Shown piece by piece: positions 2-26,041 of a stretch of DNA of 62,491 nucleotides (its first letter is position 1; each line of letters opens with the position of its first letter). Origin of the DNA: Candidatus Omnitrophota bacterium (GTDB taxonomy: Bacteria > Omnitrophota > Gorgyraeia > Zapsychrales > Fredricksoniimonadaceae); contig JAUSEK010000026.1 in assembly GCA_030650275.1 (NCBI GenBank), positions 1 to 62,491 of the forward strand. The letters run 5' to 3'. A program made the translations under genes and the position numbers. The notes under the pieces are model-generated. The model did not search any database. It worked only from the letters and a program-made list of their open reading frames with translations, and was not told the DNA's origin.

Positions 2-220
2 CCGCCGCGCGTCATTGCGTATACTGTTGGTGATCAAACCACCTATGTCATGCCTGACGATGATATCCGCACGCATCTTTCCCGCCGCGGCGACACTTCC
101 GATGAAATTGAAGGATTTATAGAACGCGTGAAACAGCATGAACGCCTGCACCGTGAGCGCAACGGCAGAGGTGATGCTCTTTCCGATCCCGCCCAGGAAG
201 AACGCGCGATTTTTGCCCTG
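2..220 (+). other. Repeated about 73 aa HExxH module, copy 1 (in giant ORF)
   Basis: PRVIAYTVGD..PDDDIR..IEGFI..QHERLHRERN.RGDALSDPAQEERAI; HERLH at 137-151; aligns with 3089-3304. Confidence 0.7.
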
Positions 221-15200: not shown

Positions 15201-18200
15201 CGGTGCCTCATGAGACGGCACATCTCCTTCATGAGTACGAGTTAGCGGCCAAGGATACGTCGTCTGTCATTCAAGGTGTTGTAGAATTGCTCTGGGGGGA
15301 GAAGACCGGCCGAGACACAGTTATTGGTGATCCCGGATGGTACGACGAAGGCCGGCGTCTTGCAACGATCCAGGACCCGGCACAAAGGGAGCGTGAGCTC
15401 CTTCAGTTCAGCCGCCGCGAAGCGCACGCAGACGATTGGGCTCAATCGGTGGTCAGCGGCCCGGGCCATCCAGAGCCGGAATCCATGCGTCCCTATGGCG
15501 TGGCGTTGGCATCGTATATTTATGAGACCATTGGGAGGCTTCGGCTTGAAGGGGCGCCTTTCCCCGAGCGGTTCGGCGACATCAATCTTTATCTGCGTGC
15601 TAACCTCAATTTAGAAACACGGGACATTGCCTCGGTGGAGCAAATTGCCGAGGCCATAGCCCGGACTTCAACGCTCTCTCCGGCAACGGTCGATACGGTC
15701 CTTGATAACTTTACGCTTTCTCCGGAAATCCGGCAAGGGGTGGCACAACTCGCGTTGAAGGGGGGGATCGTCTCACATCTGCGGCACTTCGAGGTGCGCC
15801 GTAGCAGATCAGCGCCGCCCGCCGTCGTGAGACGATCTCCCGAAGATCCAGGGCACGAGCGCCACAGGAGTTGGGGGAGACAACCCCGACCAAGATGGCT
15901 GGGTGGCGATGAGGATGTGGAGTCGGATCCGCTGAATGGTGACTGGGCCATCCCGGCTCTCTTGCGCCACCATCCCAAGAAACCGATTGTGCCGTCCGCG
16001 AGCGACGCGAGTCCCGAGCCAAGTCGAAGGGCCGCCGCGCCGTCTGTTTTACCTGCCTCTGATGTACTGGTCGGTCTAAGGACCGCCATGCTGCGACCCG
16101 GCGACCGGGTGCTGCATGTCGGATCCGGACGATCCAGACTGCCATTTCTCGACGCGTCATTAGGGGCCTCCGACGTCTTTGTCACCGATGCGCGGCCGGG
16201 CAGTCTGCAGGTTGTTGCGCACCCCGGCGTCACATTCATCAGCCGGCCGGTGGACGTAACTCGTCTTAACGAGGACTTGCGGCAGGAGCGGTTTGATCAG
16301 ATCACGATGTGGAACGTGTTATCCGAGGCGTATTTCCAAGGAGACCGGGCCCATGCGCTCATGGAACTCATCCGGGCATTGCGTCCACACGGGCGTATCT
16401 GGGTCACAGATGACCATGTCCGTCTAAGCAATGGGGAAGCGCGTTATGTTCACGACTTGCTGCCGGAGGTTGCTGATGCGATGGGTTATCGTATCAAAGT
16501 TCTGGCCGGTCCGAAAGATCTTCCCGGCGCCTACGCGGATGTGCTGGCGTATGAATTATGGCCTGATCATCGCATAGACAAGCTCAAAGGGCTTTCGAAA
16601 ACCAGCGTCTTTCTGCTGGCTGCCGGCGCTGGGTTGACGCAGCTGTTTGTTGCCGCGCCATGGATAGGGCGGGTCCATGACGCCGGGCTTGCGATGGTCC
16701 TGTTGGGTTTTGGCGCTGCGGCGCTGGGGGCCGGTCTGGCCGTGTCTATTAAAGAAAAATTGGCAATGGCCCGGGAACATCTGCCGTGGACCACCGGGGC
16801 AGTGGCCGGGGCGCTGGTCATCATACCTTTTCTGAGATGGAACTTTTCCGATCCCGATAATCTTTTGGTCGGGAATTTGATGGTTTGGGCGCAGGTCCTG
16901 TTGACCGGATTTTTGAGTGGATTTGGGGTGGAGGCGCGTGGGACGTTTGTTAATTTTATGACCATGATCTTTTTGCCTTTCGTAGAGCTGACCTTGGCGC
17001 GGTTGTGGTTAAGGGTGGCGGTCAATAATGTCAGGGCCACGTTCTTCGGCGGCCTTTTCTTTGGCCTGTCCGCTGCATTTTTTGGCTATGCGATCGGACA
17101 TCCGCTTTTGGACCTGGCGCGCATGGCGTTGGGATCTCCGCCCCAGGACAGCATTTCCAATATCATTACATTTTGGATACGAGGCGGCCAGTTCCTTAAG
17201 GTTGCGCCTACGGTGCCGCAATTTTTGGAGGTCGTTGCGGCAGTGTTTGGCGTGTGGTATTTGAGCGAACGGTCAGCCAGGTGGATCGATGGTAAGATTG
17301 AACCCCGTTTAAGACGGCGCGTTGAGCGTAGGCGTCTTGCTGTAGAGAAAGCGGTGAGAATCGCAGACCAGGCCGCGCGTCGCGCCGAGCGCCAGGCGGA
17401 ACGGGCCGTCGAGTCTATCCGAAAGGAAAAACCTAAAAAGAAAATAGTCGCGCCGGCGGTCACCAAAACGGCCGCACCGGCTTCACAGGAGATTATCAAA
17501 CCAGCCAAAGCGGCAGCGCCGACGATCGCAACACCTATTGAAACAGCCGAACCCGCCTCTGTCGAGGAACCATTTGTTCTTTCCGCACTTTCCATCAGCG
17601 ATCTTGAATCACCCGATACTGCGGAACCATTTATTCTTACCTCACTGGACATTATTGAGCCCGAATTTGATTTTGAATTCAATGTTGCGCTAGGATCGGC
17701 CGAAGAACCTTATACCGGTCAATCCAATCTTGATTTTGAAACGCCGATGCCGGAATCGGCACCGGCGCCGTCAGCCGCGGATGAATCTGTAGCGGAAGAC
17801 CTCGACTCCTGGTTGGGGGACGATGAGTTGGGACGTGAGATCGCCGCGCGTTTAGGTCAGATGCCCGTCGAAGAAGTTGAAAGCCTTCTTGATCTGGTTT
17901 GGTCCGATCCCTCTCTTTCATATGCCGAAAAACGGCAAATGCTGGCGGATCTTCTACCGAAAGAGAATATTTTGATAGAACAGACCTTAAGGTTTGATCT
18001 TGGTCGTGATCCCTTGGGCTTAAGTTTGATCGTATGGCTCGAAACCATGACGGTCCCGGAGATCCAACAACGTTTTAAGGATATCCATGGGCGCAAGGCC
18101 CTGATTAAAAAAGTACTTCAGAGATCAATGAATCCCCAGATGGCAGAACTGATCGCGGATGCTGCCAGACGTAGCGGCCAGCGGCCGCTGATTGTTATTG

Positions 18201-21200
18201 AGCGCGTCGCCGACATATTGGGAAAAGGGGCGGCCAAGCGCAGTGTTCAAGCCGTAGTGGAGCAGATACGCTCCCCATCTTCCGACGATGACCTCATTCG
18301 GTTCGCTTCGAAACTCAGCGCCCTCCTGCTGGCCGCCGGCGTGAGCCTGTTCGGCCTCGGCCTCAACATCCCTGTTCACGTCCAGGAATGGTTCCACACC
18401 GCCGGGCTTGCAATGGTCCTGCTGGGTTTTGGCGTGGCGGTGCTGGGCATGGCCGTCGCGCAGTCCCCATCTACGGTGATGCGCATCCGCGGCGAGCTGG
18501 CTAAGCGGCAAGCCCAACATCCGGAGGAACTGATCAACGTGACGGCCATTGCTAAAGTGCTCCATCTTAGTCGTCAGGCAATTTATGACGCCTTCGAACG
18601 TGATCCCGCACTGGAGAAAGAATTCCGGCGTGCCCACCACGCCTCTGCGCAAGCCCAGATACGCCGCCGTCCAACCCGGTCTCGGGTTGGCTCTTCGGAC
18701 GCGCGGTTGCGGGCGTCCAACCGAAACCTGCTGCAGGCGCAACGAGCGCACAGTCGGTCCATGGGCGCACGGCTGCGGCCTGCTGTCGGGAAAATTGTTG
18801 CGGCGTATCAGGAGCGGCTCCTGACCCTGGATTGCCGATTAGACGCCACCACGGCCGCACTCGAGCATGGCCCCCCCGCGCTCGCCGCCATCCAGTCGGA
18901 GGTCGTGGTGGACTGGACGTTCTCTCGCGATCGCCGGCGCGATGATGCCGTGCGGCAATTCCTGGCCTCCAAAGGCGTTGTCACAGGCGGCGATTTGCTC
19001 GCCGTATATGGAAAACTGCGTCGTTACTACGCTGCGGATAGGCGGTTTCGGCTGATCCGGGCGGCCCTGCGGGAACGGATCGGCCCCGCGTTTCTGGATG
19101 ATTGGACGTTTAAATCAAATTTACAGTTCGATGCGAGGATCAAGAAGGTGCTCTTTACCGCCCAACCGCCCATCTTCATCATGCAGCAGTTGCTGGCGTG
19201 TACGGAGGCTGATCTCCAGGATCTGTCTCTGGGTCCCACGATCATCCGGGCGATCCAAGCCGCGCTGCGCCGGCACGGGCGAACGTTGCACCAGAACGCC
19301 GCCGCACCGTCCGGCGGTACGGCCCTGCTTGCCGCGGCAGACAATTCTCAGCGGATAGTGTGCCGCATTGGGATCATCGGAGGCACCGGTTGGGTGGGAT
19401 CACAATTCACCCGGTGGCTGTTGCGAAAAAGCAACAGGACCATTGATGTGCTGGTGCGGCCCGGCAGCCCAAGGATCGCTTCGATCCCTAATTCACCAGC
19501 CGTCCATCTCAGGACAGCGGCTTTGCTGGACCTTGATGAGATGGGATCGTGGGTCAGAGACAATGACGTCCTTTTCGATTTTGCGGCTTGGTCCAATCTT
19601 CCGCCGGAACCGTCCGATCAGGAGAAATGGCAGCTAAACGTCCTTGCGCACGCCTATCGCGTCGCCTTAGCCGGGCGTCACGGCACGCACATCATCTTTC
19701 CTTCCTCATCCACGGTGTACCGTCTGCATGCCGGCGATGCGGATCCACCGCTCAAAGAGGACGATCTCCGGCCGGATCCCGTTGTTGATCAGTTCATTCA
19801 GGTTACCGTCGAGCAATTCAGCGCTTATGCCACGGGGGTTTTGGGTGGTGCGCCGCAGCGTGACGAGGAGTTCATCAAGGACTTTTTGTATGACCATCCG
19901 GTGCCTGCGAATGTCAGCTTTTATCCTTTAAGCAAACTGATCGCAGAGCGGCTGGTCTTGGGCCATGAGCATGCGTTGGTCTTGAGATTCCCCGAGGCCT
20001 ATGGACCGGGGGAAACCGCGCACAAAGCCATCCCCAATATGTTGCGGGCGATCGTGGAAGGCGCAATGCAACTGGGGGTGCGGGACGACCAGAAGCAGTT
20101 TATATTTATTGAAGATGTTTTCAGGGTGTTGGAAGTAACCATGGATGCGCGCGTGGACCCGGCCAGGCGCGTCATGAATGTGCCCGGTCCCCAAGTCCTG
20201 GATACGTTTGCGGATGTGATCCCGGAGATCCGGCGTATCACCGGATCCACGATCCAATTTAACAGGGTCACCGGTTTGCAGAATCCTGCCATGGACGGCT
20301 CGAGACTGCAAGAACAACTGGGTGTAGTGCCAGGTGTTTTGTTGGAGGAGGGTTTAAGCCACACCTATGCCTGGTGGCAGTCTCGATCATCCCATGCCGC
20401 GCCCACCGACGCCGCGCCAGCCGTCAGTAAGATGGGCCTTTCGAAACTCAGCGTCTTGCTGGCAGCTGTGGGCGTGGGCCTGTTCGGCCTGGGCCTCAAC
20501 ATCCCTGTTCACGTCCAGGCATGGTTCCACACCGCCGGGCTTGTAATGATCCTGCTGGGGGCGGGCGTGGCGGTGCTGGGCATGGCCGGTTATAAGGGCA
20601 AGTCGTTCAAACGGTGGAAGAGAGAAAAAGATTTAAGGTATAAACACGGCGGCGCGGCTTTCCGGGCGTTGGTACCGACGGGCATGGCATTGCACTTTAC
20701 GGGGCTGGTCAGCGGGATCCGGCATCTTCGGATGTCGGCGCTGCCGCATATGGGATGGTGGCCGGCGCTGGGAATGACGACTGGGATCCTGCTGGCTTCA
20801 TTAGGATGGTCCATAGCCGCTTCGTGGGTCGTCGAAGCAGACCAGCACAGACAACAGCAGAAGCAATCCAGGCTCAGATTTTTTGGAGGGGTAGAACATT
20901 TACCGTACATGACGCCAATTGCGATAGGCACACTGATGGTAGTTGTCTTTCAGTACATGGCCGTGTCAATTTTAGTAGAACGGGGCGTTTCGGTTGTTTT
21001 GAGTACTGCGGAGGTCATGGGCAGTATTGTTGGTTTGTGGGGTATTTACAAAACTGCGCGGACCAGATCCGTTCTGGCCATGTTCATATTAGCCGGCCTT
21101 TACGCGTGGTGGTTCGGTGTTCCGTTCTCGGGGTTATTGGCGAGGTTGGGATGGGTCGGTATCGTCGCGGTCTTGGCCGGCGCGGCAGTGCCGCCGGACC

Positions 21201-24200
21201 GGAAACTTATTGAAAGCCTGACCGGTCAGGGGAATACGCTTAGGCGCAGCGCCCTCAAGTTCAAGGCAGACCGTCGATTTAAGGATGTCAGGACGGCGTC
21301 GCAACAGGCCGAGGGGATGTTCCTGGAAGCTGTGCGTCTTGGCCAGGATGACCCCAGCACCCTTATGGCCCGTCATGCCCTCGGTCAGCTTTATTATGAC
21401 CGAGGGGCTTATTATCGGGGCATTGAAGTTTTGGAAGAAGCCCTGGACCTGATCGGCCGGTTTCGAGACGCGAATCCACAGGCAAGGCGATTGATGAAAT
21501 TTTTAGCCGGCCAGGAATCTCTTATGCTGGTGACTCTCGCCGGCATGTTGCTGAAAAACTGGCGCCTCCAGGAGGCTTTTAAGATCCTTACTGCCGGTGA
21601 TCCGGCCGTTCTCAAACCGCAGTTCATGGAAAGTCCGGGCGCCCATCGCATCCTTGCGGATGCCTTGATCCAGGCCATGCGTCCTGCCGAGGCCATCAAC
21701 GTCCTGACCACCAACGGCATTCACCTGAAACCTCTGCTGGCGCGGTACCCCGGATTCTCCCAGCGGCTTCTTGATACTGCCCTGTCCCGGATCAGAGACC
21801 AAGGGACGGTCAAGCCCGTTGACGGGGACATTCAATTCTGTCCTCTTGAGATCATAGACATGGCCAGAGCGCTTGCTCAAAAGAATAACCTTAACGTGGG
21901 CGATCTCATCCGGGAAGGGATCAAGGGTCTTCGTGAGGCGGACCGCACATACGATCCTAAAAAAGGAGATTCCTTTAAGACGTTTGCGTTAAAAAGGGTC
22001 CGGGGTGCCATGAAGGATTTCATCCGTCGCGATCGTGCCGCGCGTCAGTATGGCGGCGGATCCGTGCCGGATCGCGCCTCCGGCGGGAAATGGCCCGGAA
22101 AATGGCAGAGGTCCTATGACCGGATCCAGGAGCAGGTGACCCGCTGGACGGGCAATAAGGCATTGGGCTGGTGGGCGGGACAGGCGTTGGCGCCCGGGTT
22201 CACGGAGTCCGTTGTTTTTGTCGGCGGCACAAGCCTGTTATTGAGTTTGGGGGCAAATGCCCTGAAAAGTTGGGCTTTTGGTCTGCCGCTGGCCATGGCC
22301 CCGCCGGTGTTGCTCACCCTTGTCTTTACTCCGTTCCTTCTTTTTGCGTGGCGCCGTTTCCACGGACGGCAGAATCTCTTCGCGGCAGACCTTGCCCTCA
22401 TCAATCATCTTTCGTTATATAGAGCCGGCTTGACCGTTTTTATTTTGGTCCTTGCACATGCGGGCAGCATGCTTGTCATCGGTTCATATCTGACGGCCCT
22501 TTGGATCTCGCATACACCGGTTAATGCCAGGCATAATCCTTTCCGCGGTGACCACGGCCATGATTTACACAATTTTCCGGTTGCACGGTGGCTGCGCGAG
22601 AGGCGGGGGCGCATGACATTGCGGGACAATGAGGGCAGGGTATTTGAGTTTCGTTATTCGGGGCCGTTCCCTGTCTTTTTTGACCACCAGCATTTGCTGA
22701 CCATCTTCCATGACGGCCGCCAGATCGGTTACGCGCATTTTATGGTCAAAGGCGGTCAGGCGCGGATGTCCACTACGTTCGGGGGACGTCCGGCCATCAT
22801 GGTGGATAAAGCCCATCGCCACCGGGGCCTCGGCAGGTCTTTGATCATGTTGTTGTCGCAGTTGGCGGGGGCGTCCGGAGCGAAACGTGTTCTGGCAAAG
22901 GATGTGCTGCCTGAAGAGACGGGTTTTTATGAAGCCCTCGGTTTTCAGAGGGTTCCCAGCGGCCATGCGTGGCGTTTATCATATGAGCTGTTGTCGTTTG
23001 AAACTTTTTCCATGAGTAAAATTTTATCGCCCGTCGCTGCACCGCTTGTGGCGGACAAGAGCGATCCACAGGGAACAACTTTTTTTGCCCCTGTATCGGT
23101 TTTGGCCCTGACTGCGCGGTCCTGGGCGCCACTTTTAGGATTGTCACCGGAGGCCGCGCTTCTTATGCAAGCGATCGGATTGGCGATAGGGCTGGTAGCG
23201 ATGGCGATATGGTTTTATGTCCGGGGAAGATCAGTGCTTGGCCTTGGAGTCATGCCTGTTGCCGTTAATGGCAATGGCACCGATGACCAGAGCAAAGCAA
23301 ATCATAAAAAGATAGGACCATTCAAGACCGATCATAAGACACCCCTTTCATTATTCAAAAGCATTATAGCAGCGGCAAATAGGATTAAAAAGCAAAACCA
23401 TCCCATTATAAATATTTCCCAAAAGATCGTGCGGGCGACCACCTGGCCGAAAACAAGCGTCACGGCCGCCAAATTGCCAAGGTTGAAGAACGCTTTGCTT
23501 AATTCTTTGCGTTGGGTGGGATTGAATCTGATGCTGAACAACATGACAGGCCTCCTGCGGATTATTTTGGGGAGATGGATTGGTACAACAAGCGTGGGGA
23601 ACGCTTGGATGAAACGATTCAATGTAACATCCGGATATGGTTTTGTCAATATTGCGGCCTCGGCCGTTGTGATCACCTTTGGCCTGTTCGCCGCTGCGTC
23701 TGCCCTGACCCCGAGTGCCAGTGTGGTTCATGACATCGGCTGGGGCGGTGTTCTGGCGGCTGGGATCGCTGCGGTGACCATCGCAGCAACGGTCAATGGT
23801 TGGCTAAGGCGGTCACCCGACAGGATGGTCAAGGTCGCGGGACCTCCACAGATCGCCTGGTCGAGACATATGGATATCGGACAGATGCAGCGGACCGTTT
23901 TCCGTGGTCCATCCGGGTCCCTTGAGCGTTTGCTTGGCGAGGTCCTGGCTGTTCACAAGCCGGTCGTTGATGCCGGATCCGGCGAGAGCGGTGCGCTGGA
24001 GGGTGTTTCTCAAGCAAGCGCCGGGGCCGTCGTGTTTCACAACCCGTCCCCTGATGAGCCGACATTGAAGGATTTCGCAAGGGCATTGTACGTGCTTGAG
24101 CCGGGCGGATGGTTCGTTGTTCACCTCAGCGGTGGTTTTTTTGACCAAGAGAAGAGATTGGTCCAGATGTTGTATCAATTCAGCCGCGCGCGGGCGGGTT

Positions 24201-26041
24201 TCAGAGAACTTGTCGTTCTTGGGTCGCCGCGTCAGGAGGACAGGGAAGTATTCTTGCTGGCGCGTTATGGCGGCGGCAATGTACGGTCATTGTCCGCCGG
24301 GAAAGGCAGATCAGTGCTTGGTCTTGGAGTTCAGCCGATTACTGTTGATGGCGAGGAACAGCATCAAGGTAGCAAAACAAGCCAAGAAGATCATGTAGGG
24401 AAGGATTGGATTCATAGTGCTCTCCTTGTTTCAGACACATTACCTAACAGCATTATAGCCGATGCAAAGAACATCGCAAGGCAAAATACTCCTAATATAA
24501 AGATCGGAGCATCGAATGTTCCCAATACAACTTGGCCTATGATCAATCCGGAAAAACACAAATTACCGGAATTGAACAGAGCTTTTCCCATTTCCTTCGA
24601 CTGGACTTCGTTGAACTTGAGGTTAATACTGAACGGCGGCATGACAGGTCTCCTGCGGTTATTTGGGGAGAGAGTAGTTGGTACAACAAGCGCGGGGAGC
24701 GCTTCGATTGAATTTAATGTAGCATCGGCCGGTGGCTTTGTCAATATTGTTCTGGTGTTGAGCCTTGGGCTTGCGGCCGCGCTGGCTCCCCACATTGCGT
24801 ATTTGCTTGGTGTTTCTACGGGGCTTGTCCCGCTTGGCGCAACTATACTGATCGTACTGGCGGGGACCATATTTAGTATATGGATCATCGCCGGCCGGAG
24901 TGCGTTATCACGATTAGTCTTGTTTGTCAGATACGGCCTAAACCTGATTGGTTTTTTCCTCTTTGTCGGTACGCAAAATTTTCTTGTTTACAGCGTTTTA
25001 CTTCTACGCGCGACAGGATGGGCATATTTGCCTGCTTCAGTTGGAGATGTGGTGAAGGCGGCGATAATTTGGGTGGCGTCAACGGTGATTCTGTTGGTAG
25101 CGGGTCAGTGGATGACCCGTTTTATTGAGGATATGGGGGATCGTGTTGGAACGTTTATGACATGGTTTCGGTCGGACGAAATCAAACAAGCGAAGGCTGA
25201 GGAGGTTTTTCAAGAGTTCAAACGCGATGGGATTGTTCGTGTCCGTTGTGATCCACGTCTGGCCGCTGGTTTGCGTCTGGTTTCTGGCGTTGAGCCGACA
25301 CAATTCTACGAGCAAGTCCAAGAGGGAGGTCGGGATTGGACGACCGGAACGATTCTCTTTACGCCGGCGTTGACGGTCTCCAAACAGGTGATACGTTATC
25401 TCATCGTGCGCCGTGCCCTTTCGGCATATTACGATGCAACACAGGGATCTTTGCATCAAAACAATCTTCTTGAGTTTCCATTCTTGGGGGGAGACCTTTT
25501 TTGGCCGTTATGGGGAGACTGGGAGTCTTTGAAGCGGGGATACCGCTATCCGGTGATGATTCCGTACATTTTACTTCATCAGGTTTTCGTAAGCTCAGTT
25601 GCTCTTGTGGGCTTTGTCTTATTGTGGATAAATCCGTCAATGGAGATACTTTTGACTGCAGGATCCGGTAGAAGTGAAGTAACGCGAAGGATTTTTTGGC
25701 ACGTTAAGCAGTTTATTTTTCGATATCCGGTGGAGGACGGTCGCATCAGGTCCTGGTTAAGGGGCAGGCATCTTTTCAGTTTTGCCTTCCCTCTGGCTCT
25801 GACATTTCCGCTGTGGGCAACACCGCAGCACCTTGCCGTGCTCACAGCCATGGGGTTGTTGATCGTGAAGGCGGTTTTGTTGACGGGTATTGTGGCAGGA
25901 GCGGTGTGGCTTTTTCACCGCGCCGGGCAAAGAAGATCAGTGCTTGGCCTTGGAGTCGCGCCTGTTGCCGTTAATGGCAATGGCACCGATGACCAGAGCA
26001 AAGCAAATCAGAAAAAGATAGAGAAAAAGGGGACACCATAA
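2..26041 (+). CDS. Giant multidomain membrane-associated protein, 5'-partial (at least 8,663 aa)
   Basis: ORF track gives 50..26041. The frame is also stop-free from base 2 (PPRVIAYTVGDQTTYV before the ATG at 50), so the true start lies upstream of the window. Many recognisable domains share the frame; stop TAA at 26039-26041. Confidence 0.92.
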   Translation, partial: PPRVIAYTVGDQTTYVMPDDDIRTHLSRRGDTSDEIEGFIERVKQHERLHRERNGRGDALSDPAQEERAIFALQDTDASWWKDPKRTNVVMSVPIFSLRREVNDPGIGKFTDIGPYYRDHLAPLGIDAVLLLPHYATIDGSPYAVASPYSLNEDFIDWMEVDEVREEAAMYPDVLQELTAPSSEQQAVHHGSLHHRERAMALRAAERFWTREVPADSTRGKMFDDFVQRNRPWLDDYAEFMAVHEILGGECLTWSSQALEQAKREQTYSALVRLHMYAQWVADEQLRAAIAMVHEHGGKVLFDVPMFRGKNSVDVWKHRDHFKKAENPDRYPGIVRGELNERWGDLALWNWTRAGQEGYRFMLDPVAHWLDMGFDGARIDALHMAYNNGYGQLVSGDEPGNAYVSALARVFQEREKLSVAEAYEGRSGDIARRGFITVLGDWKRLSDHDGTDVNPRDPRYDDTRETFIQNFNAYMNSGNFSGKNARFIALVLGHQWGDPMPIKRITGDNGTRRSIWHYRIPLQSDADYKNRARFDAGDYLAAIKAIRQGNIWQAGDAISRTLSAAADTFVKHVNGTVEIWASSRDWFQQQWGRDTLIALPGLLLAMGRFDEARENIRSFARLQRNGLVPNRIQDTQHPERTEYNTVDGSMWFIQAIQSYVEATGDWNFVNEMLPTMRAIVESYQHGTEYERFEWPHRIYRIYMDPQDGLIVSPAQATWMDADPHHRGPVTPRDGKAVEINALWYADLKFLAEVEEQAGERSRAEAHRDLAGRVKISFNAKFWNAPEGALLDVIEGTDPYQGAIRPNMLIAVSRGGDLISPERQADVFASATKDLLTPYGLRTLSPRDSHYRGRYETWRQPYPHEADFPNHKDFAYHQGTVWPWLIGPYVDTLARVRQQQGVGEDEIQDEIRRLLSPLIEFLMTSPVGNIPEVFDGDAPHRAGGTRAQAWSVSEVLRVLTEYGVLGPPRDAGLAVPGLIALISAAAVGSFAQEIRETHPAEHRQLVEYGNLLARFEVQLTDQESTGPPWHPRYVKYTLGNEIYGIPDDEIRRQMNVWQIPTETIESFIKFINEHEEWHRLRNIGGIALSDPDAEEHAILTIQVNSIVQKSISSSAVSPVKDATALITHAAALMGKVRALLDEIETLRQLNLTLKEWALIRKTTINADARILPEGHLPDDGLLMEHRWIQAAKARELPEHILNFADNHEAELNFTETMLGNPIEFLKRAQILIAESPVLSEQTVLNITALVESANIRVDGVNQRVGPVRSRLNTFQSKMAKELRKATMAWGRNDGPGLQDPHEIFSYLLITLVTAAAVGLWLAAKWFIRNRGTVFRQRSADFLELLAARVDPKRISRSRLQEQAWIDSLTGLHNQRFFEAIMEKYVAIAKRSKTKLSMIIFDVDGLKQVNDRYGHIAGNRVLRHIADKLRDVVRDSDETARWGGDEFTVLLLNADLNGAAIVAEKIRAAVETPISAIIGAEMLPGQEDRKIAVSLGVAEYVQGDTGQSFLRKADSALYQAKRAGRNGVVVAATEMDQPPVPFVRHIVLQGRDYTMMYAVANPQTAAAVANLVLTSEARIAKAGGLNEWEGHLIARGRRNPAWFIRYVQQVLKENPYSLVARDAQEKIQGVVFVSLVDAKSAEELPARHTLMRYAHQRQGVRSAMVDFWVTGAVSGMADELLLSTKHLAQHLNRMQPETCRIERLFAYSTPRSYKEADDVSRAVIGPLSIEFYLASGNDPVLHGYHVRLGGTIVRIISKAWSSRHSNLGYAVVVQHPLIEPSKPFDPTTLSSWIFPTLLAAGLLARVLGLDMDHAGQQAGLFYGWLVNSLAGAVIVVWQWLRTHGIRLLPDGRYVYIARLVRRLAREDSPSLVSMDRVMDVLVQDHELMALISENRLLDPMARLIERFTEGAHIFRFNKSQQEAFVKMFEDKYTRTVSFDRDGLWVVELYTRPVTWKQKWQAFDESPEPIGTFRFYYHQNGKGPSLQIGYPEIHSDYRGRHLYSETVRAIVDVNNISYGTRVWHVVDEIRTLEALYGKIVGGQDEEAYPDRPEADRKILLRADIVHELNRRFGGVWRDEEFLKATVLGRPLAGLDRLALKATEGGLWMTGINGERAPAWEGPQAPSWLEDFWQDHPVIANPAEQERLKQWETGFVERLHDRFLLPLEDIRTFLEDVRQAMTVGQPDTRMDTRGVDIFLAQQGPSALTRVDAAYLRKRFEEFVPLYNNMAAALNGHAPVFGRARLLEEVFFTHLFLGRRFDMSAAQAHWAVNLYRQNNIPQGIILGWLARHSLKTAMNEEQAWLAFERDPNLMLRLAGLLTEDAHSGLHLVFYRLIKAKALSNVQHLAVLSADDEDGRREAFSRGLYKVIRAAIGYSYLAGHRIQKRMLSPKERESLRQIYAALLNFIPLAVKVVPLRVSRPSKHRRSFPITPGSKANDEKKKARRVDERLRQTRGLNFNDLRNFTPQDVDKHIDGGRNGPRLGDPHEAFSFILYILVTAAAAAVMWFVRSVRAELAGDLKQLERSKRDSGKIRMTFWVSTLAVGGAEKVVLDLMNNIDTRRFDIITETRDSKERYDVEITGAQRRGMYFIIKPLLYSKFRQYLSNRSGILRLLRLMLLLARSLRQAPIEYFIHKNTRPRIYHIHEYGIRQSGKKAIAKLAGVPVVMTTYHTFPKSNGPIRSLDDMITWANHFITRISFHYIDDVIVALTEAEKQEHIRVNRVPAEKIVVIPNGIDQRLFMEQADVEKVLDVRRKLHLPEDAFVVGAVGRLSLEKGHRHLVEAARIVLEEIPQAYFLIIGEGTERGNLTRQIEAAGLRGRVVMPGVQTHDSLPLYLAAMDVFTMPSLIEGQPLAKIEAMASGKAVIASKVGGMPETLDGAGILVPPADPQTLAREIIRLAKDPELRARLGRAARERAQLFSVEKMVEDYARLYQRLAANRGISLQPASASIDSGRNGMPKHEERHIPYGIHSRGWRNNNDVGHNLSGEWYRAPHGRRGVVEISIPVMGKFWTSMWARGDWTAFGRGYFGEMLTFLENFIEDVRRQNPAARLVDFGTGNLEVPRIIRDALTDFTVYAFDVADPSWLYRPDADHFFKTDIEAVGLLDGQVHAVTAVYVLEYARRMDNVLREIHRVLKPGGLAAIIAIHPRSKLVEFAAQNVNKGETWLKEMKPGLRGPDHLEIHKAGILARLNIIKWRLERAAEIPDTEEGMNAWLRRHGFVDIKLEHLHDQDSLLAWGVRVRKPVSNQSPAAPSASANLSGLDLHSLHDITHVFWLALGFVIAIVAAAVKRIRKGRQVHYYPTVDSWQEHERAVNFHSHAAHKTTRRALRIMDSVFAAFLAIGIIDVFLGGLGIAPLLRLVFSYLFANILVAVLVWLHEFVHVLFVPKEDRTLKNFWGNMSGSNWLHLAFRRPYTVPGRLPYVQIMSDLSDARRRWVNYSALIFTFLSSSAIVFVSWILFTRGTWPMPAGLAAIVAFRSAWAGDFRNPSKHTFHWGASDPGPTGPADEDIFGDLAHTLEKYFNSMDFPDSMAEDARHEFFGRLLQNIVEDRRLKHGILMSWVLWSLRSYEHGVNPLERVFDILGTPMPPQKMIRSAIREFERVLDRATHAVSMPARDYQMVGDRSARSAGRAVVKKQTPKQAPGHRGPTEGNMSGLLPLAAGVVGVGMTVVIAGWILASIYKPQVLKFVAGRAPPGPVRRIVLSVLGRLLPEQFIPIQNHLRRLVKGDFLLLKWLRRSTPILLDLNTTPQTVGPSPDHGTTDPGITVIPTDAGNPNAMGSYEVLYGTRFLGTHEHVALPDKRIVLYQYDELPKELRNVAIGHRRQEFVRWTENKMSQAVGYAHFTTRSAGFALDSVDLAGRRVLDVGMGEGTLAILAAKKGAKSVVGVDVYPRIIDVAQKNAELNRVTSQVRFYIQDAKQSIPGEDGSFDVIIMNVPRYQFYELVGALMLRYPMVQTFILGGSAQSMDRSRVLDISDKVVRLFRRRGFVFTAKFVDTINRYYDGRMWNTYIIHSPSVEAPNALRQYMGSMKTEFTTVVIVLSMFASAPGLPAGVAAAAVLAGLGLLVLGMTVVTGRGKKGPRGLSSKKVKLKAVATKQRYYLMRFILTTVDKGALDRLITHFSAVQKRHVSDVGTAIRQIVEKTRSQWKPDVPVPPEWGDIGRKFFDWAKDQEFVTVRTQQIRERAQELLSGRMRELFEVRAGLVSWRNLGKMNYDPNFLTRALEIIRTNLPLLDDGLIPSPGMAHDDLRGTKAMIMVTGRRVSWEGSLITAGIFGLIGLAAIGGSLSMQGIGLVAISAAGVYVIQGLVIMFLPLAVSRAGSLWARTRWGVPGPPDYPLIKPLRDMRYNYYTPFLEVTDRHQIINARLQAGFLFLPPLLQWIFYLPIGLLRAVHERPAHCTPLARLHEAHNELIAYPLEILFVFTGAIGYAFAATPEALLAGILIGLSIQIILSWWGHGREQAFREAVPDIILKADRPGLISRRVVLRTLVAGIAGTAVIWKMGDLQDPLEEQTAKQRGYEDWFADRDEWLAEGDMVNAALANRRGELLRAAQMVPVMAQMSPRVFYTWIASVESLEFFRGRAEPDGKIARGELQAWIEGYRNLSRQPNTPAPDMKTVEEVQQQLRLLAAQVAINPRDRRNPIPDRRPEARSVLDRRTMFAVMLGLPKLPPAPARLILDVGAGDGRTTQALALSNPNARIIMIDPSTNSFEAAKQRLKSFPNVEFVGRHVEQWDSSGLAGSADHIYFLFPFFLYRPYKHPISADTARRIAEKIFGLLMPGSGEFVMVTEFPEIISVFIKAFRAAQLQVDSEKVPTGDLVQHVPVAIHSDIYAYISKATEARFKTVLIIHARKPVEGISSPAKRGLSKLTVFLLAAGAGLTQLFVAAPWIGRVHAVGFAMVLLGFGVAMLGGNLAKLTRVLKRWREVSRFTAQERQDFTFFTRETIDTLAAGRPQKERDRFFKRIALKPLTKIHILLRYDSHLWRDLFFVAIISVLGAFEGWILGRALLHFGNTGVAIITWLGGIVFGTFALVRSRLPARSSANIIACIIPGGTTIFVNRRLTAGRRDRFVAAVPHETAHLLHEYELAAKDTSSVIQGVVELLWGEKTGRDTVIGDPGWYDEGRRLATIQDPAQRERELLQFSRREAHADDWAQSVVSGPGHPEPESMRPYGVALASYIYETIGRLRLEGAPFPERFGDINLYLRANLNLETRDIASVEQIAEAIARTSTLSPATVDTVLDNFTLSPEIRQGVAQLALKGGIVSHLRHFEVRRSRSAPPAVVRRSPEDPGHERHRSWGRQPRPRWLGGDEDVESDPLNGDWAIPALLRHHPKKPIVPSASDASPEPSRRAAAPSVLPASDVLVGLRTAMLRPGDRVLHVGSGRSRLPFLDASLGASDVFVTDARPGSLQVVAHPGVTFISRPVDVTRLNEDLRQERFDQITMWNVLSEAYFQGDRAHALMELIRALRPHGRIWVTDDHVRLSNGEARYVHDLLPEVADAMGYRIKVLAGPKDLPGAYADVLAYELWPDHRIDKLKGLSKTSVFLLAAGAGLTQLFVAAPWIGRVHDAGLAMVLLGFGAAALGAGLAVSIKEKLAMAREHLPWTTGAVAGALVIIPFLRWNFSDPDNLLVGNLMVWAQVLLTGFLSGFGVEARGTFVNFMTMIFLPFVELTLARLWLRVAVNNVRATFFGGLFFGLSAAFFGYAIGHPLLDLARMALGSPPQDSISNIITFWIRGGQFLKVAPTVPQFLEVVAAVFGVWYLSERSARWIDGKIEPRLRRRVERRRLAVEKAVRIADQAARRAERQAERAVESIRKEKPKKKIVAPAVTKTAAPASQEIIKPAKAAAPTIATPIETAEPASVEEPFVLSALSISDLESPDTAEPFILTSLDIIEPEFDFEFNVALGSAEEPYTGQSNLDFETPMPESAPAPSAADESVAEDLDSWLGDDELGREIAARLGQMPVEEVESLLDLVWSDPSLSYAEKRQMLADLLPKENILIEQTLRFDLGRDPLGLSLIVWLETMTVPEIQQRFKDIHGRKALIKKVLQRSMNPQMAELIADAARRSGQRPLIVIERVADILGKGAAKRSVQAVVEQIRSPSSDDDLIRFASKLSALLLAAGVSLFGLGLNIPVHVQEWFHTAGLAMVLLGFGVAVLGMAVAQSPSTVMRIRGELAKRQAQHPEELINVTAIAKVLHLSRQAIYDAFERDPALEKEFRRAHHASAQAQIRRRPTRSRVGSSDARLRASNRNLLQAQRAHSRSMGARLRPAVGKIVAAYQERLLTLDCRLDATTAALEHGPPALAAIQSEVVVDWTFSRDRRRDDAVRQFLASKGVVTGGDLLAVYGKLRRYYAADRRFRLIRAALRERIGPAFLDDWTFKSNLQFDARIKKVLFTAQPPIFIMQQLLACTEADLQDLSLGPTIIRAIQAALRRHGRTLHQNAAAPSGGTALLAAADNSQRIVCRIGIIGGTGWVGSQFTRWLLRKSNRTIDVLVRPGSPRIASIPNSPAVHLRTAALLDLDEMGSWVRDNDVLFDFAAWSNLPPEPSDQEKWQLNVLAHAYRVALAGRHGTHIIFPSSSTVYRLHAGDADPPLKEDDLRPDPVVDQFIQVTVEQFSAYATGVLGGAPQRDEEFIKDFLYDHPVPANVSFYPLSKLIAERLVLGHEHALVLRFPEAYGPGETAHKAIPNMLRAIVEGAMQLGVRDDQKQFIFIEDVFRVLEVTMDARVDPARRVMNVPGPQVLDTFADVIPEIRRITGSTIQFNRVTGLQNPAMDGSRLQEQLGVVPGVLLEEGLSHTYAWWQSRSSHAAPTDAAPAVSKMGLSKLSVLLAAVGVGLFGLGLNIPVHVQAWFHTAGLVMILLGAGVAVLGMAGYKGKSFKRWKREKDLRYKHGGAAFRALVPTGMALHFTGLVSGIRHLRMSALPHMGWWPALGMTTGILLASLGWSIAASWVVEADQHRQQQKQSRLRFFGGVEHLPYMTPIAIGTLMVVVFQYMAVSILVERGVSVVLSTAEVMGSIVGLWGIYKTARTRSVLAMFILAGLYAWWFGVPFSGLLARLGWVGIVAVLAGAAVPPDRKLIESLTGQGNTLRRSALKFKADRRFKDVRTASQQAEGMFLEAVRLGQDDPSTLMARHALGQLYYDRGAYYRGIEVLEEALDLIGRFRDANPQARRLMKFLAGQESLMLVTLAGMLLKNWRLQEAFKILTAGDPAVLKPQFMESPGAHRILADALIQAMRPAEAINVLTTNGIHLKPLLARYPGFSQRLLDTALSRIRDQGTVKPVDGDIQFCPLEIIDMARALAQKNNLNVGDLIREGIKGLREADRTYDPKKGDSFKTFALKRVRGAMKDFIRRDRAARQYGGGSVPDRASGGKWPGKWQRSYDRIQEQVTRWTGNKALGWWAGQALAPGFTESVVFVGGTSLLLSLGANALKSWAFGLPLAMAPPVLLTLVFTPFLLFAWRRFHGRQNLFAADLALINHLSLYRAGLTVFILVLAHAGSMLVIGSYLTALWISHTPVNARHNPFRGDHGHDLHNFPVARWLRERRGRMTLRDNEGRVFEFRYSGPFPVFFDHQHLLTIFHDGRQIGYAHFMVKGGQARMSTTFGGRPAIMVDKAHRHRGLGRSLIMLLSQLAGASGAKRVLAKDVLPEETGFYEALGFQRVPSGHAWRLSYELLSFETFSMSKILSPVAAPLVADKSDPQGTTFFAPVSVLALTARSWAPLLGLSPEAALLMQAIGLAIGLVAMAIWFYVRGRSVLGLGVMPVAVNGNGTDDQSKANHKKIGPFKTDHKTPLSLFKSIIAAANRIKKQNHPIINISQKIVRATTWPKTSVTAAKLPRLKNALLNSLRWVGLNLMLNNMTGLLRIILGRWIGTTSVGNAWMKRFNVTSGYGFVNIAASAVVITFGLFAAASALTPSASVVHDIGWGGVLAAGIAAVTIAATVNGWLRRSPDRMVKVAGPPQIAWSRHMDIGQMQRTVFRGPSGSLERLLGEVLAVHKPVVDAGSGESGALEGVSQASAGAVVFHNPSPDEPTLKDFARALYVLEPGGWFVVHLSGGFFDQEKRLVQMLYQFSRARAGFRELVVLGSPRQEDREVFLLARYGGGNVRSLSAGKGRSVLGLGVQPITVDGEEQHQGSKTSQEDHVGKDWIHSALLVSDTLPNSIIADAKNIARQNTPNIKIGASNVPNTTWPMINPEKHKLPELNRAFPISFDWTSLNLRLILNGGMTGLLRLFGERVVGTTSAGSASIEFNVASAGGFVNIVLVLSLGLAAALAPHIAYLLGVSTGLVPLGATILIVLAGTIFSIWIIAGRSALSRLVLFVRYGLNLIGFFLFVGTQNFLVYSVLLLRATGWAYLPASVGDVVKAAIIWVASTVILLVAGQWMTRFIEDMGDRVGTFMTWFRSDEIKQAKAEEVFQEFKRDGIVRVRCDPRLAAGLRLVSGVEPTQFYEQVQEGGRDWTTGTILFTPALTVSKQVIRYLIVRRALSAYYDATQGSLHQNNLLEFPFLGGDLFWPLWGDWESLKRGYRYPVMIPYILLHQVFVSSVALVGFVLLWINPSMEILLTAGSGRSEVTRRIFWHVKQFIFRYPVEDGRIRSWLRGRHLFSFAFPLALTFPLWATPQHLAVLTAMGLLIVKAVLLTGIVAGAVWLFHRAGQRRSVLGLGVAPVAVNGNGTDDQSKANQKKIEKKGTP
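260..1570 (+). other. 4-alpha-glucanotransferase (GH77/MalQ-like) domain in giant ORF
   Basis: VPIFSLR..GIGKFTD, SPYAVASPYSLN, YAQWVADEQL, LFDVPMF, WGDLALWNW; RID, AE and HD catalytic-type motifs present. Confidence 0.8.
1736..2880 (+). other. Amylo-alpha-1,6-glucosidase (glycogen debranching enzyme C-terminal) domain in giant ORF
   Basis: WGRDTLIALPGL, YNTVDGSMWF, TWMDA, TPRDGKAVEINALWY, IRPN, LLTPYGLRTLSP, YHQGTVWPWLIG, IPEVFDGD..AQAWSV. Confidence 0.88.
3089..3304 (+). other. Repeated HExxH module, copy 2 (in giant ORF)
   Basis: PRYVKYTLGN..PDDEIR..IESFI..EHEEWHRLRN.GGIALSDPDAEEHAI; HEEWH at 3218-3232. Confidence 0.7.
3866..3960 (+). repeat. GRN(D/G)..DPHE.FS..LVTAAA transmembrane linker, copy a
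   Basis: Shares AGACCCGCACGAG and ATTAGTGACAGCCGCGGC with 7409-7512. Confidence 0.75.
4085..4585 (+). other. GGDEF diguanylate cyclase domain in giant ORF
   Basis: DSLTGLHN, FDVDGLKQVNDRYGHIAGN, RDSD-ETARW-GGDEF (4322-4336), ADSALYQAKRAGRN. Confidence 0.92.
4640..5330 (+). other. Possible GNAT-like domain in giant ORF
   Basis: Alpha/beta pattern ending DPVLHGYHVRLGGTIVRII..SNLGYAVVVQH; weak family recall. Confidence 0.35.
5880..6080 (+). other. GNAT-like acetyltransferase motif in giant ORF
   Basis: IGYPEIHSDYRGRHLYSETV resembles the acetyl-CoA-binding motif A. Confidence 0.45.
7409..7512 (+). repeat. GRNG..DPHE.FS..LVTAAA transmembrane linker, copy b
   Basis: Homologous to 3866-3960; its first 20 nt match 8840-8859 at 19/20. 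Confidence 0.75.
7586..8800 (+). other. GT-B family 4 glycosyltransferase domain in giant ORF
   Basis: GGAEKVV, VIPNGID, VGAVGRLSLEKG, DVFTMPSLIEGQPLAKIEAMASG (E-X7-E), VGGMPE. Confidence 0.92.
9137..9720 (+). other. Class I SAM methyltransferase fold #1 in giant ORF
   Basis: LVDFGTGNLE, AFDVA, YVLEY..VLREIHRVLKPGG. Confidence 0.8.
9960..10440 (+). other. Intramembrane HExxH (site-2/M50-like) segment in giant ORF
   Basis: Hydrophobic helices with LVWLHEFVHVLF (HEFVH at 10118-10132). Confidence 0.5.
11555..11990 (+). other. Class I SAM methyltransferase fold #2 (PrmA-like) in giant ORF
   Basis: GRRVLDVGMGEGTLAILAAKKGAKSVVGVDV..AQKNAELN; FDVIIMNVP. Confidence 0.85.
14012..14545 (+). other. 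Class I SAM methyltransferase fold #3 (TrmB-like) in giant ORF
   Basis: ILDVGAGDG, IIMIDP, DHIYFLFP, GEFVMVTE. Confidence 0.75.
14576..14716 (+). repeat. TM-hairpin cassette copy 1 (GLSKLTVFLLAAGAG...AMVLLGFGVAMLG)
   Basis: High nucleotide similarity to 16589-16730, 18306-18452 and 20434-20586. Confidence 0.9.
14960..15700 (+). other. TM-anchored zincin-like segment in giant ORF
   Basis: Two TM helices, then FVAAVPHETAHLLHE (HETAH at 15209-15223). Confidence 0.5.
16088..16560 (+). other. Class I SAM methyltransferase fold #4 in giant ORF
   Basis: PGDRVLHVGSG, FVTD, FDQITMWNVL, LIRALRPHGRIWVTD. Confidence 0.75.
16589..16730 (+). repeat. TM-hairpin cassette copy 2
   Basis: GLSKTSVFLLAAGAGLTQLFVAAPWIGRVHDAGLAMVLLGFG; middle nearly identical to copy 1. 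Confidence 0.9.
18306..18452 (+). repeat. TM-hairpin cassette copy 3
   Basis: SKLSALLLAAGVSLFGLGLNIPVHVQEWFHTAGLAMVLLGFGVAVLGM. Confidence 0.9.
18533..18601 (+). other. Helix-turn-helix motif in giant ORF
   Basis: INVTAIAKVLHLSRQAIYDAF. Confidence 0.65.
18911..19292 (+). other. Tandem RNA polymerase alpha-CTD-like repeats in giant ORF
   Basis: Two DWTF-starting units. The second (ARIKKVL..IFIMQQLLACTEADLQDLSLGPTIIRAIQAALRRHGRTL) follows the alpha-CTD pattern [47 protein letters not shown]. Confidence 0.6.
19363..20390 (+). other. NAD-dependent epimerase/dehydratase (extended SDR) domain in giant ORF
   Basis: IGIIGGTGWVG, FPSSSTVY, YPLSK (YxxxK), LRFPEAYGPG, FIFIEDV. Confidence 0.88.
20434..20586 (+). 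repeat. TM-hairpin cassette copy 4
   Basis: GLSKLSVLLAAVGVGLFGLGLNIPVHVQAWFHTAGLVMILLGAGVAVLGM; middle matches copy 3 at 68/71 nt. Confidence 0.9.
21300..21800 (+). other. TPR-like helical repeats in giant ORF
   Basis: AEGMFLEAVRL..ARHALGQLYYDRGAYYRGIEVLEEALDL. Confidence 0.6.
21848..22033 (+). other. Sigma-70 region 2-like domain (FliA-type pattern) in giant ORF
   Basis: DLIREGIKGLREADRTYDPKKGDSFKTFALKRVRGAMKDFIR. Confidence 0.8.
22600..22990 (+). other. GNAT acetyltransferase domain in giant ORF
   Basis: IMVDKAHRHRGLGRSL..FYEALGF. Confidence 0.8.
23231..23335 (-). CDS. Nested antisense small membrane protein B1, 34 aa (MIGLEWSYLFMICFALVIGAIAINGNRHDSKAKH)
   Basis: SD-like AAGGGGTG upstream; ATG overlaps the TGA of ORF A1 (ATGA); one TM helix plus basic tail; homologue at 24311-24415. 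Confidence 0.7.
   Translation of the reverse strand: MIGLEWSYLFMICFALVIGAIAINGNRHDSKAKH
23332..23544 (-). CDS. Nested antisense 2-TM small protein A1, 70 aa (MLFSIRFNPTQRKELSKAFFNLGNL...)
   Basis: AGGAGG 6 nt before the ATG at 23544; conservative substitutions relative to homologue 24412-24642. Confidence 0.75.
   Translation of the reverse strand: MLFSIRFNPTQRKELSKAFFNLGNLAAVTLVFGQVVARTIFWEIFIMGWFCFLILFAAAIMLLNNERGVL
23621..23649 (-). promoter_or_regulatory. Sigma-70 promoter of nested antisense unit 1
   Basis: TTGACA (23649-23644), 17 nt spacer, TGn-TACATT (23626-23621). Confidence 0.75.
23948..24290 (+). other. Degenerate SAM methyltransferase fold #5 in giant ORF
   Basis: PVVDAGSGE..FARALYVLEPGGWFVV. 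Confidence 0.55.
24311..24415 (-). CDS. Nested antisense small membrane protein B2, 34 aa (MNPILPYMIFLACFATLMLFLAINSNRLNSKTKH)
   Basis: AAGGAG 6 nt before ATG; ATGA overlap with the A2 stop; same length as B1. Confidence 0.7.
   Translation of the reverse strand: MNPILPYMIFLACFATLMLFLAINSNRLNSKTKH
24412..24642 (-). CDS. Nested antisense 2-TM small protein A2, 76 aa (MPPFSINLKFNEVQSKEMGKALFNSGNL...)
   Basis: AGGAG SD before the ATG at 24642; homologous to A1. Confidence 0.75.
   Translation of the reverse strand: MPPFSINLKFNEVQSKEMGKALFNSGNLCFSGLIIGQVVLGTFDAPIFILGVFCLAMFFASAIMLLGNVSETRRAL
24716..24744 (-). promoter_or_regulatory. Sigma-70 promoter of nested antisense unit 2
   Basis: TTGACA (24744-24739), 17 nt spacer, TGn-TACATT (24721-24716). 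Confidence 0.75.
25937..26024 (-). pseudogene. Truncated third copy of small ORF B (LYLFLICFALVIGAIAINGNRRDSKAKH), no in-frame start
   Basis: 25932-26021 matches 23226-23315 at 87/90 nt; upstream part replaced by a palindrome. Confidence 0.7.

Follow-up and report, generated by a model that had tools for sequence, protein, structure and literature searches.

The window analysed here, by which we mean the whole stretch of DNA under study, is the entire contig JAUSEK010000026.1 (C24; 62,491 nucleotides) of a Candidatus Omnitrophota bacterium (assembly GCA_030650275.1; 1.63 Mb, 96% complete). Its beginning is taken up by a single giant open reading frame (ORF) for a mosaic membrane protein of the Archaeovorin type, which is open at the contig start, so that part of the gene lies beyond the contig. 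Along this giant ORF, Pfam identifies GH77, amylo-1,6-glucosidase/GDE, GGDEF, GT4, at least four S-adenosylmethionine (SAM) methyltransferases, an NAD epimerase, Sigma70_r2, and GNAT, and a hydropathy scan places about 40 or more transmembrane segments, scattered between the domains. An earlier note on this sequence had reported three pieces of transcription machinery inside the giant: a helix-turn-helix (HTH) at 18533-18601, two repeats resembling the C-terminal domain of the RNA polymerase alpha subunit (alpha-CTD) at 18911-19292 (amino acids (aa) 6304-6431), and a FliA-type sigma region 2 at 21848-22033 (aa 7283-7344). These coordinates are exact, and all three stretches share the reading frame of the giant ORF. 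Our analysis bears out the sigma region 2 and, in part, the alpha-CTD-like repeats, and leaves the HTH as an unproven candidate.

The frame in which these elements are read is the true coding frame. Between 18 and 22 kb, GC content is high at the first and third codon positions (GC1, GC3) and low at the second (GC2), which is the pattern of ordinary genes in the window, and the signal stays coding-like along the whole giant ORF. Antisense and other-frame ORFs at 18000-22600 were considered as real genes and rejected, as their translations are Arg/Pro/Gly-rich junk and the GC1/GC2/GC3 pattern fits the giant frame. Together, the codon-position pattern and the junk translations of the alternatives indicate that the giant frame is the one that codes.

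The sigma-70 region 2 (sigma-2) domain was identified by several lines of comparison. Residues 7288-7345 match Pfam Sigma70_r2 (PF04542) with an E-value of 4.1e-10 (39.7 bits, cut-off 24). The closest solved structures are those of FliA (9wsm_F, E 9e-7) and WhiG (E 6e-4), and the matches among 300 genomes of the phylum are free FliA-like ORFs of 257-283 aa, which carry regions 2-4 and are 36-49% identical to the stretch. An AlphaFold2 (AF2) model, backed by an alignment that consisted of sigma sequences, folds into three helices with predicted local distance difference test (pLDDT) values of 84-93. When searched with Foldseek, this model matched the N-terminal domain of SigE (8b3z_E) with a probability of 1.00, a TM-score of 0.75 by target, and a root-mean-square deviation (RMSD) of 1.3 Å, and further matches include many sigma-70 chains. 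Downstream, no Pfam match to Sigma70_r3 or Sigma70_r4 was found at E<=10, and the alignment to FliA-type sigmas stops past the motif FIRRDRA, at aa ~7348. As the earlier note had claimed, no recognisable region 4 follows. Sequence and predicted fold together confirm that the giant carries a genuine sigma region 2 domain of FliA type, without region 3 or 4.

The residue pattern of this domain combines strict conservation with a localized change. The FliA-type motif F.T(Y/F)A..R(I/V)RGA..D is present, and over 51 aligned positions the domain's identity with free FliA-type sigmas is 43-49%. Every position that is invariant among the FliA-type relatives is kept (15/15), and the chance of such retention, if conserved positions were spread at random, is ~1e-6 to 5e-8 (hypergeometric). 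More specifically, D7301, L7302, E7305, and G7306 are kept, the first three of which align with D403, L404, and E407 of sigma-70. On helix 2.2, by contrast with nine of nine relatives, in which these positions are hydrophobic, K7308, R7311, and D7314 are charged and form an i/i+3/i+6 stripe. K7338, farther along, also replaces a residue that is hydrophobic in all nine, and the relatives compared include a sigma embedded in a giant ORF of another genome (G028, described below). R7311 occupies the position aligned with M413 of sigma-70. Helix 2.2 of sigma contacts the beta-prime coiled-coil, and substitution of M413 weakens the interaction between sigma and core (PMC5389655). As all 15 invariant residues are retained, yet the hydrophobic residues of helix 2.2 have become charged, the domain has apparently stayed folded, and one of its interfaces was lost or altered as its surface turned hydrophilic.

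The host genome was surveyed for related genes. Sigma70_r2 matches occur only three times in the whole genome, the copy in the giant included, and the two free sigma-70-family genes are RpoD (559 aa, C8) and an RpoD/RpoS-like gene (300 aa, C15). Neither a free FliA nor FHIPEP/FlhA, a component of flagellar export, was found in this 96%-complete genome, which leaves the FliA-type module without an obvious regulon in its host. FliA-like sigmas are common in other Omnitrophota classes, and none was found in the sampled genomes of the host's own family and order. The nearest relatives of the genome's RpoA come from Candidatus Omnitrophota metagenome-assembled genomes, at 71-89% identity, which agrees with the phylum assignment.

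The two alpha-CTD-like repeats each start at the motif DWTF. A HMMER search with aa 6153-6450 against 1.84 billion representative proteins returned P0002 as the sole relative (E 7.7e-13), a protein of 13 tandem PF03118 repeats (E 2e-81) whose solved relatives are RpoA CTDs. The match is made up of eight stretches, every one over the DWTF region, and its summed score is inflated because the P0002 repeats resemble each other. A profile of the 13 repeats matches the giant only once, at aa 6373-6426 within unit 2, with 20.1 bits, whereas the best of 5,000 shuffles reached 8.0 bits (0/5000 at or above the real score); hhalign of unit 2 against the P0002 repeats gave P 3.7e-5. Unit 1 reached 2.8 bits, equalled by 32 of the 5,000 shuffles (p ~0.006, marginal), and stands in register with the preceding P0002 repeat, with which it shares the boundary motif, the hydrophobic positions, and the last helix. 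The boundary motif reads VDFT in P0002 and DWTF in the giant, where it occurs exactly twice (0.02 expected) at a spacing of 63 aa; the P0002 period is 63-66 aa.

Direct comparisons with the RpoA family were negative. PF03118 found no match at E<=10 on the pieces that carry the tandem, a six-frame scan of the genome with PF03118 recovered the true RpoA (contig C21) only, and BLASTP aligned neither unit 1 with unit 2 nor either unit with the CTD of the genome's own RpoA. In the AF2 model, unit 2 has pLDDT values of 78-91 and unit 1 of 61-78. The top 50 Foldseek matches of this model are almost all RNA polymerase (RNAP) alpha chains or isolated alpha-CTDs (TM-score 0.65-0.79), and 1z3e_B aligns with a probability of 0.99, a TM-score of 0.79, and an RMSD of 2.0 Å. 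The structural check proposed in the earlier note has thus been made for both domains, and the predicted folds match alpha-CTD and sigma-2, respectively, from alignments that are derived from these families. The alpha-CTD-type units lie between an Arg-rich linker and the epimerase and are not accompanied by the alpha N-terminal (assembly) domain. Unit 2 keeps an Arg and a Gly at two columns of the alignment with the P0002/alpha-CTD repeats, which we take to be the equivalents of R265 and G296 of E. coli alpha; on that assumption, the '265 determinant', with which E. coli alpha binds DNA, appears by alignment to be kept at two of its six residues. Judged by sequence and predicted fold, unit 2 is a genuine alpha-CTD-type helix-hairpin-helix (HhH) domain and, by sequence, unit 1 is a degenerate tandem copy. 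The claim of two repeats is therefore partly confirmed, with one or two alpha-CTD-type domains in the giant, one solid and one degenerate.

The proposed HTH fared less well. The stretch INVTAIAKVLHLSRQAIYDAFER resembles a helix-turn-helix by eye, and its identity is not confirmed. Its top Pfam match, HTH_23 (E 0.013, 15.8 bits, cut-off 24.6), and the next, HTH_29 (E 0.063), are both below cut-off. There was no match in the PDB at E<=10 and no relative in the 300 phylum genomes or the 1.84 billion representatives, and AF2, working without alignment depth, draws the stretch as long continuous helices. A diverged sigma region 4 was also considered and rejected: the sigma-4 profile scored 1.1 bits, which 208 of 5,000 shuffles equalled, and hhalign placed the core in the right register at P 0.06 (not significant).

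In the layout of the giant, the HTH, alpha-CTD, and sigma-2 features are not one unit but parts of two separate cassettes (Table 1). In Block A (aa 6153-6815), the HTH-like stretch is followed by an Arg-rich linker of 100 aa, and the pair of alpha-CTD-type units by the NAD epimerase. Block B (aa 7064-7424) consists of tetratricopeptide (TPR)-like repeats followed by sigma-2, and eight helices predicted from hydropathy to span the membrane separate it from Block A. The N-terminal part of Block A is strongly basic and matched only itself in the 300 phylum genomes; a sequence search with Block A against the PDB gave nothing at E<=10. The two transmembrane-hairpin connectors that bound Block A (18307-18455 and 20440-20588) are 88% identical in DNA over 152 bp and 84% identical in protein, and a weaker third copy lies at aa 4861-4910. 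Their sequences make these repeats candidates for recombination events by which entire cassettes are gained or lost.

Table 1. Features of the giant ORF in and around Blocks A and B, with positions in the window
Feature	Positions	Strand	Residues (aa)	Basis or remark
Giant ORF, mosaic membrane protein, Archaeovorin-type	2..26041	+	at least 8,679 in total	5′ end open at contig start
Transmembrane-hairpin connector, copy 1	18293..18472	+	6098-6157	Left boundary of Block A
Candidate helix-turn-helix, unproven	18533..18601	+	6178-6200	HTH_23 below cut-off
Arg-rich helical linker, low-confidence	18602..18901	+	6201-6300	AF2; no relatives in the 1.84-billion-protein search
Alpha-CTD-type unit 1, degenerate	18902..19096	+	6301-6365	DWTF boundary, hydrophobic positions, and last helix FRLIRAALRER kept
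Alpha-CTD-type helix-hairpin-helix unit 2	19097..19297	+	6366-6432 (profile core 6373-6426)	Repeat profile, AF2, Foldseek
NAD-dependent epimerase/dehydratase	19373..20182	+	~6458-6727	PF01370, E 9.8e-15; enzyme cargo of Block A
Transmembrane-hairpin connector, copy 2	20420..20599	+	6807-6866	Right boundary of Block A
Six predicted transmembrane helices	20669..21190	+	6890-7063	Hydropathy only; loop before them net +7
TPR-like helical repeats upstream of sigma-2	21191..21841	+	7064-7280	Weak TPR_10/ANAPC3; Foldseek KLC and CTPR TPR matches
Sigma-70 region 2, FliA-type, without region 3 or 4	21842..22048	+	7281-7349	Pfam, PDB relatives, AF2/Foldseek
Membrane cassette 'GKWP...LAP..ES..FVGG.SLLLS'	22067..22381	+	7356-7460	Stands where sigma regions 3/4 would be
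GNAT acetyltransferase, next enzyme module	22679..22948	+	~7560-7649	Pfam

The membrane cassette that follows sigma-2 has the consensus 'G(K/R/M)WP...Y..L...GQ.LAP...ES..FV.G.SLLLSWAFGIPL..PP', which is common to large ORFs of four genomes. Its other carriers are G251 (C2, L015; 34,487 codons), G279 (C39, L016), and G053 (C23, L017), three genomes of the same class in which the ORFs with this cassette measure 2,718, 5,339, and 34,487 codons. Within the window the cassette is single-copy. As it begins directly after sigma-2 and recurs elsewhere, the sigma homology ends where a portable membrane cassette starts. Even numbers of transmembrane helices, positive loops, and the cofactors of the neighbouring enzymes (NAD, SAM, acetyl-CoA, and GTP) suggest that both blocks most probably face the cytoplasm. 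Elsewhere along the giant, HExxH motifs occur five times (aa 46, 1073, 2957, 3373, and 5070), against 0.34 expected from composition, and the one at aa 3373, HEFVH, lies inside a hydrophobic segment; these motifs are possible metalloprotease-like modules, which might process the giant protein. Junction motifs of the form R-S-E-x-R are absent from the giant.

Modules of the same kinds recur in other large Omnitrophota proteins. In genome G028 (L014, G028:C24:45000-54000), a giant ORF of 7,637 codons combines HEAT repeats with a FliA-type sigma that is complete, having both Sigma70_r2 and Sigma70_r4, and with an HTH_3 (XRE) domain (aa ~1220-1740 in the frame of the locus). By its domain content, the product is a candidate full sigma factor tethered to the membrane. 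For PF03118, the phylum-wide listing is dominated by canonical RpoA, and the census was made on a sample of nine multi-copy genomes; these genomes have extra PF03118 units, often two side by side, in ORFs that range from 536 to 8,713 codons. In G219 (C83, L022), which belongs to the same taxonomic order, a 2,027-aa UDPGP-PFK-[alpha-CTD]-PGI fusion (3439-9519, minus strand) includes UDP-glucose pyrophosphorylase and has its alpha-CTD unit at aa ~1306-1345, between phosphofructokinase and phosphoglucose isomerase. This arrangement resembles that of the giant, whose units stand directly before the epimerase.

P0002 itself is encoded by a free-standing gene (L024 6001-8703) on a 65-kb metagenome scaffold, and a 4-repeat paralogue adjoins it at 8744-9640. 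Both proteins start with a hydrophobic, signal-peptide-like N-terminus (MFLL.QF..LIF...IYLF.P.SAFG) and may be exported alpha-CTD repeat proteins. No HTH was found in the 298-aa neighbour of P0002. As P0002 is free-standing and has a signal-peptide-like start, the settings in which alpha-CTD repeats occur extend beyond RNAP and even beyond the cytoplasm. Large Omnitrophota proteins commonly use alpha-CTD-type units as small building blocks. A further genome, G150 (C157, L020), contains a 2,490-aa ORF with two tandem alpha-CTD domains (698-8167, minus strand), and a 271-aa FliA-like sigma gene (G150:C157 16001-16813, minus strand) lies ~8 kb from it.

The explanation that we favour, with a probability of roughly 0.55, is that these elements are captured and shuffled modules of a cassette-built mosaic membrane giant, whose present role would be that of soluble, folded domains acting as adaptors or spacers beside its enzyme modules. 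One cassette would comprise the HTH-like helices, the Arg-rich linker, the two alpha-CTD-type HhH units, and the NAD epimerase, bracketed by the near-identical transmembrane hairpins. The other would combine the TPR-like repeats with a sigma region 2 derived from a FliA/WhiG-type sigma module like the complete one in the G028 giant, and a membrane cassette would have replaced regions 3 and 4 of the embedded sigma. At present, the domains would make protein-protein or non-specific nucleic-acid contacts at the cytoplasmic face, next to the enzymes, and would act neither as a sigma factor, nor as part of an RNAP subunit, nor as an RNAP decoy. What is observed is the identity of the domains, the point of truncation, the repeats at the flanks, the recurrence in other large proteins, and the pattern of residues; the order of events, the side of the membrane, and the role today are deduced from these.

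Several points weigh against this explanation. Among 5.8 billion proteins, no giant-sized relative of aa 6153-7424 was found at E<=1e-5, and no orthologue of Block A or Block B is present in the 300 phylum genomes or among the giants of that protein set. As neither block has an orthologue, selection since capture is not measurable, and the order of events, capture first and truncation later, is one that we infer. The topology comes from hydropathy alone, and the fold match of the alpha-CTD units is not independent of the sequence link, as the AF2 alignment was made up of alpha-CTD repeats. 'Adaptor' or 'spacer' is also a weak functional claim, and the full set of invariant sigma-2 residues would fit just as well with a partner that has been kept, such as the RNAP core or an anti-sigma-like protein.

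The captured-module explanation was weighed against three others. The strongest of these, still clearly less probable than adaptor modules, is that the elements are pure debris, fragments swept into the giant ORF that are functionless and decaying and are kept by the open frame alone. The blocks are lineage-specific and have no orthologues, unit 1 is degenerate, the HTH is sub-threshold, the linker is low-complexity and of low confidence, and the sigma is truncated, all of which would be expected of decaying fragments. Against this, the sigma-2 domain keeps 15 of 15 invariant positions at an overall identity of only 43-49% (p ~1e-6), pLDDT is high for both sigma-2 and unit 2, and the codon-position GC pattern is normal. 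Furthermore, the hydrophobic-to-charged changes are clustered on one helix face and not scattered.

A second alternative, which we regard as unlikely, is that RNAP or the chromosome is docked at the giant through sigma-2, the alpha-CTD units, and the basic HTH-like module. For very long genes, this could couple transcription and translation to membrane insertion; where a giant has a complete sigma, a membrane-tethered sigma could be freed on a signal. In favour of this, several Omnitrophota giants contain sigma or alpha-CTD modules, among them the full region 2 plus region 4 sigma with HTH_3 in G028, the predicted topology has both blocks facing the cytoplasm, and the N-terminal part of Block A is strongly basic. 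Membrane-tethered sigmas also exist in other groups, as extracytoplasmic function (ECF) sigmas with transmembrane extensions. The copy studied here, however, has no regions 3/4 with which to direct promoter recognition, its helix 2.2 no longer bears the hydrophobic stripe, and there is no conservation among relatives. It is correspondingly doubtful that sigma- and alpha-CTD-derived modules are a recurrent, functional RNAP or nucleoid docking feature of Omnitrophota giants, of which the present copy, reduced to sigma-2, would still use a re-specified surface to bind core RNAP or some partner.

An idea already raised in the earlier note is that of a decoy. In the form considered here, sigma-2, tethered or released by proteolysis, would bind the beta-prime clamp helices and the alpha-CTDs would bind activators or UP-like DNA, sequestering the transcription machinery of the cell itself or of a host or prey. 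It is compatible with the predicted folds, which match sigma-2 and alpha-CTD, with the presence of all invariant sigma-2 residues, including D7301, L7302, and E7305, with the predicted cytoplasmic position of both blocks, with the possibility of self-processing that the five HExxH motifs leave, and with the Arg and Gly of unit 2 that align with what we take to be R265 and G296 of E. coli alpha. As a mechanism, this idea is unsupported, appears somewhat disfavoured and is, in our estimate, improbable, as the core-binding helix 2.2 carries the charged residues K7308, R7311, and D7314, with R7311 at the M413 position, as alpha-CTD units are generic parts of metabolic multi-enzyme proteins and of a probably exported repeat protein, as the elements lie in different cassettes and form no unit that is conserved in any relative, and as one tethered copy per giant could hardly titrate RNAP.

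Comparison with known systems places the two domains at some distance from their canonical relatives. Like FliA and WhiG (sigma-28, group 3), the giant's copy has region 2 (2.1-2.4) with its invariant residues and three-helix fold. Unlike them, it has no region 3/4, sits inside a membrane protein at least 8,679 aa long, is charged at three conserved hydrophobic positions of helix 2.2, and its genome provides neither the flagellar export gene nor the free FliA that belong to the flagellar context of these sigmas. Split or partial sigmas that consist mainly of region 2, with no covalently attached region 4, are exemplified by phage T4 gp55 and B. subtilis SigO-RsoA. The giant's copy is likewise a sigma-2-type domain without an attached region 4, but gp55 and SigO-RsoA are free, soluble proteins that act with the RNAP core and a partner, whereas the copy here is internal to a larger protein and altered on helix 2.2. 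With the alpha-CTD of RNAP (PF03118) and the P0002-type repeats, unit 2 shares the HhH pattern, the 63-aa period, a VDFT/DWTF-type boundary, and the predicted fold. The giant's units differ from the RNAP alpha-CTD in that they do not match PF03118, show no similarity to the RpoA CTD, and lack the alpha N-terminal domain, and in that unit 1 is degenerate.

The giant as a whole fits what has been described for its phylum. Archaeovorin-type Omnitrophota giants contain glycosyl transferases (GT), methyltransferases (MT), glycosyl hydrolases (GH), and many transmembrane helices (West-Roberts et al. 2023, bioRxiv 10.1101/2023.11.21.568195), and a 'TM-only, bulk cytoplasmic' architecture, TM standing for transmembrane, has been reported for Omnitrophota giants (2026 preprint 10.64898/2026.06.07.730766). 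The giant studied here has in common with them the phylum, the great length, the many transmembrane helices, the GT/GH/MT domains, and the transmembrane-only, bulk-cytoplasmic layout; in comparison with the Archaeovorin-type giants, no SecA_DEAD was found by Pfam in the part of the gene that the contig covers. Sigma, RNA-polymerase-type, and HTH domains are not mentioned for Omnitrophota giants in either source, in which the words 'sigma' and 'transcription' have 0 occurrences (10.1101/2023.11.21.568195; 10.64898/2026.06.07.730766).

In the literature, Omnitrophota giants appear as chains of enzymes, carbohydrate-active and other, together with SecA-like domains and peptidases, and transcription-derived domains can now be added to this picture. 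It is possible for a sigma factor to be captured into a giant protein, whole in G028 and cut to region 2 here, with a cut that coincides with a portable membrane cassette. The near-identical transmembrane-hairpin repeats at the cassette boundaries offer a concrete picture of how giant genes grow. If these modules do contact RNA polymerase, the present case would tie giant membrane proteins to transcription. For now, it chiefly provides a well-documented case of domain capture and trimming in the mosaic giants of Omnitrophota.

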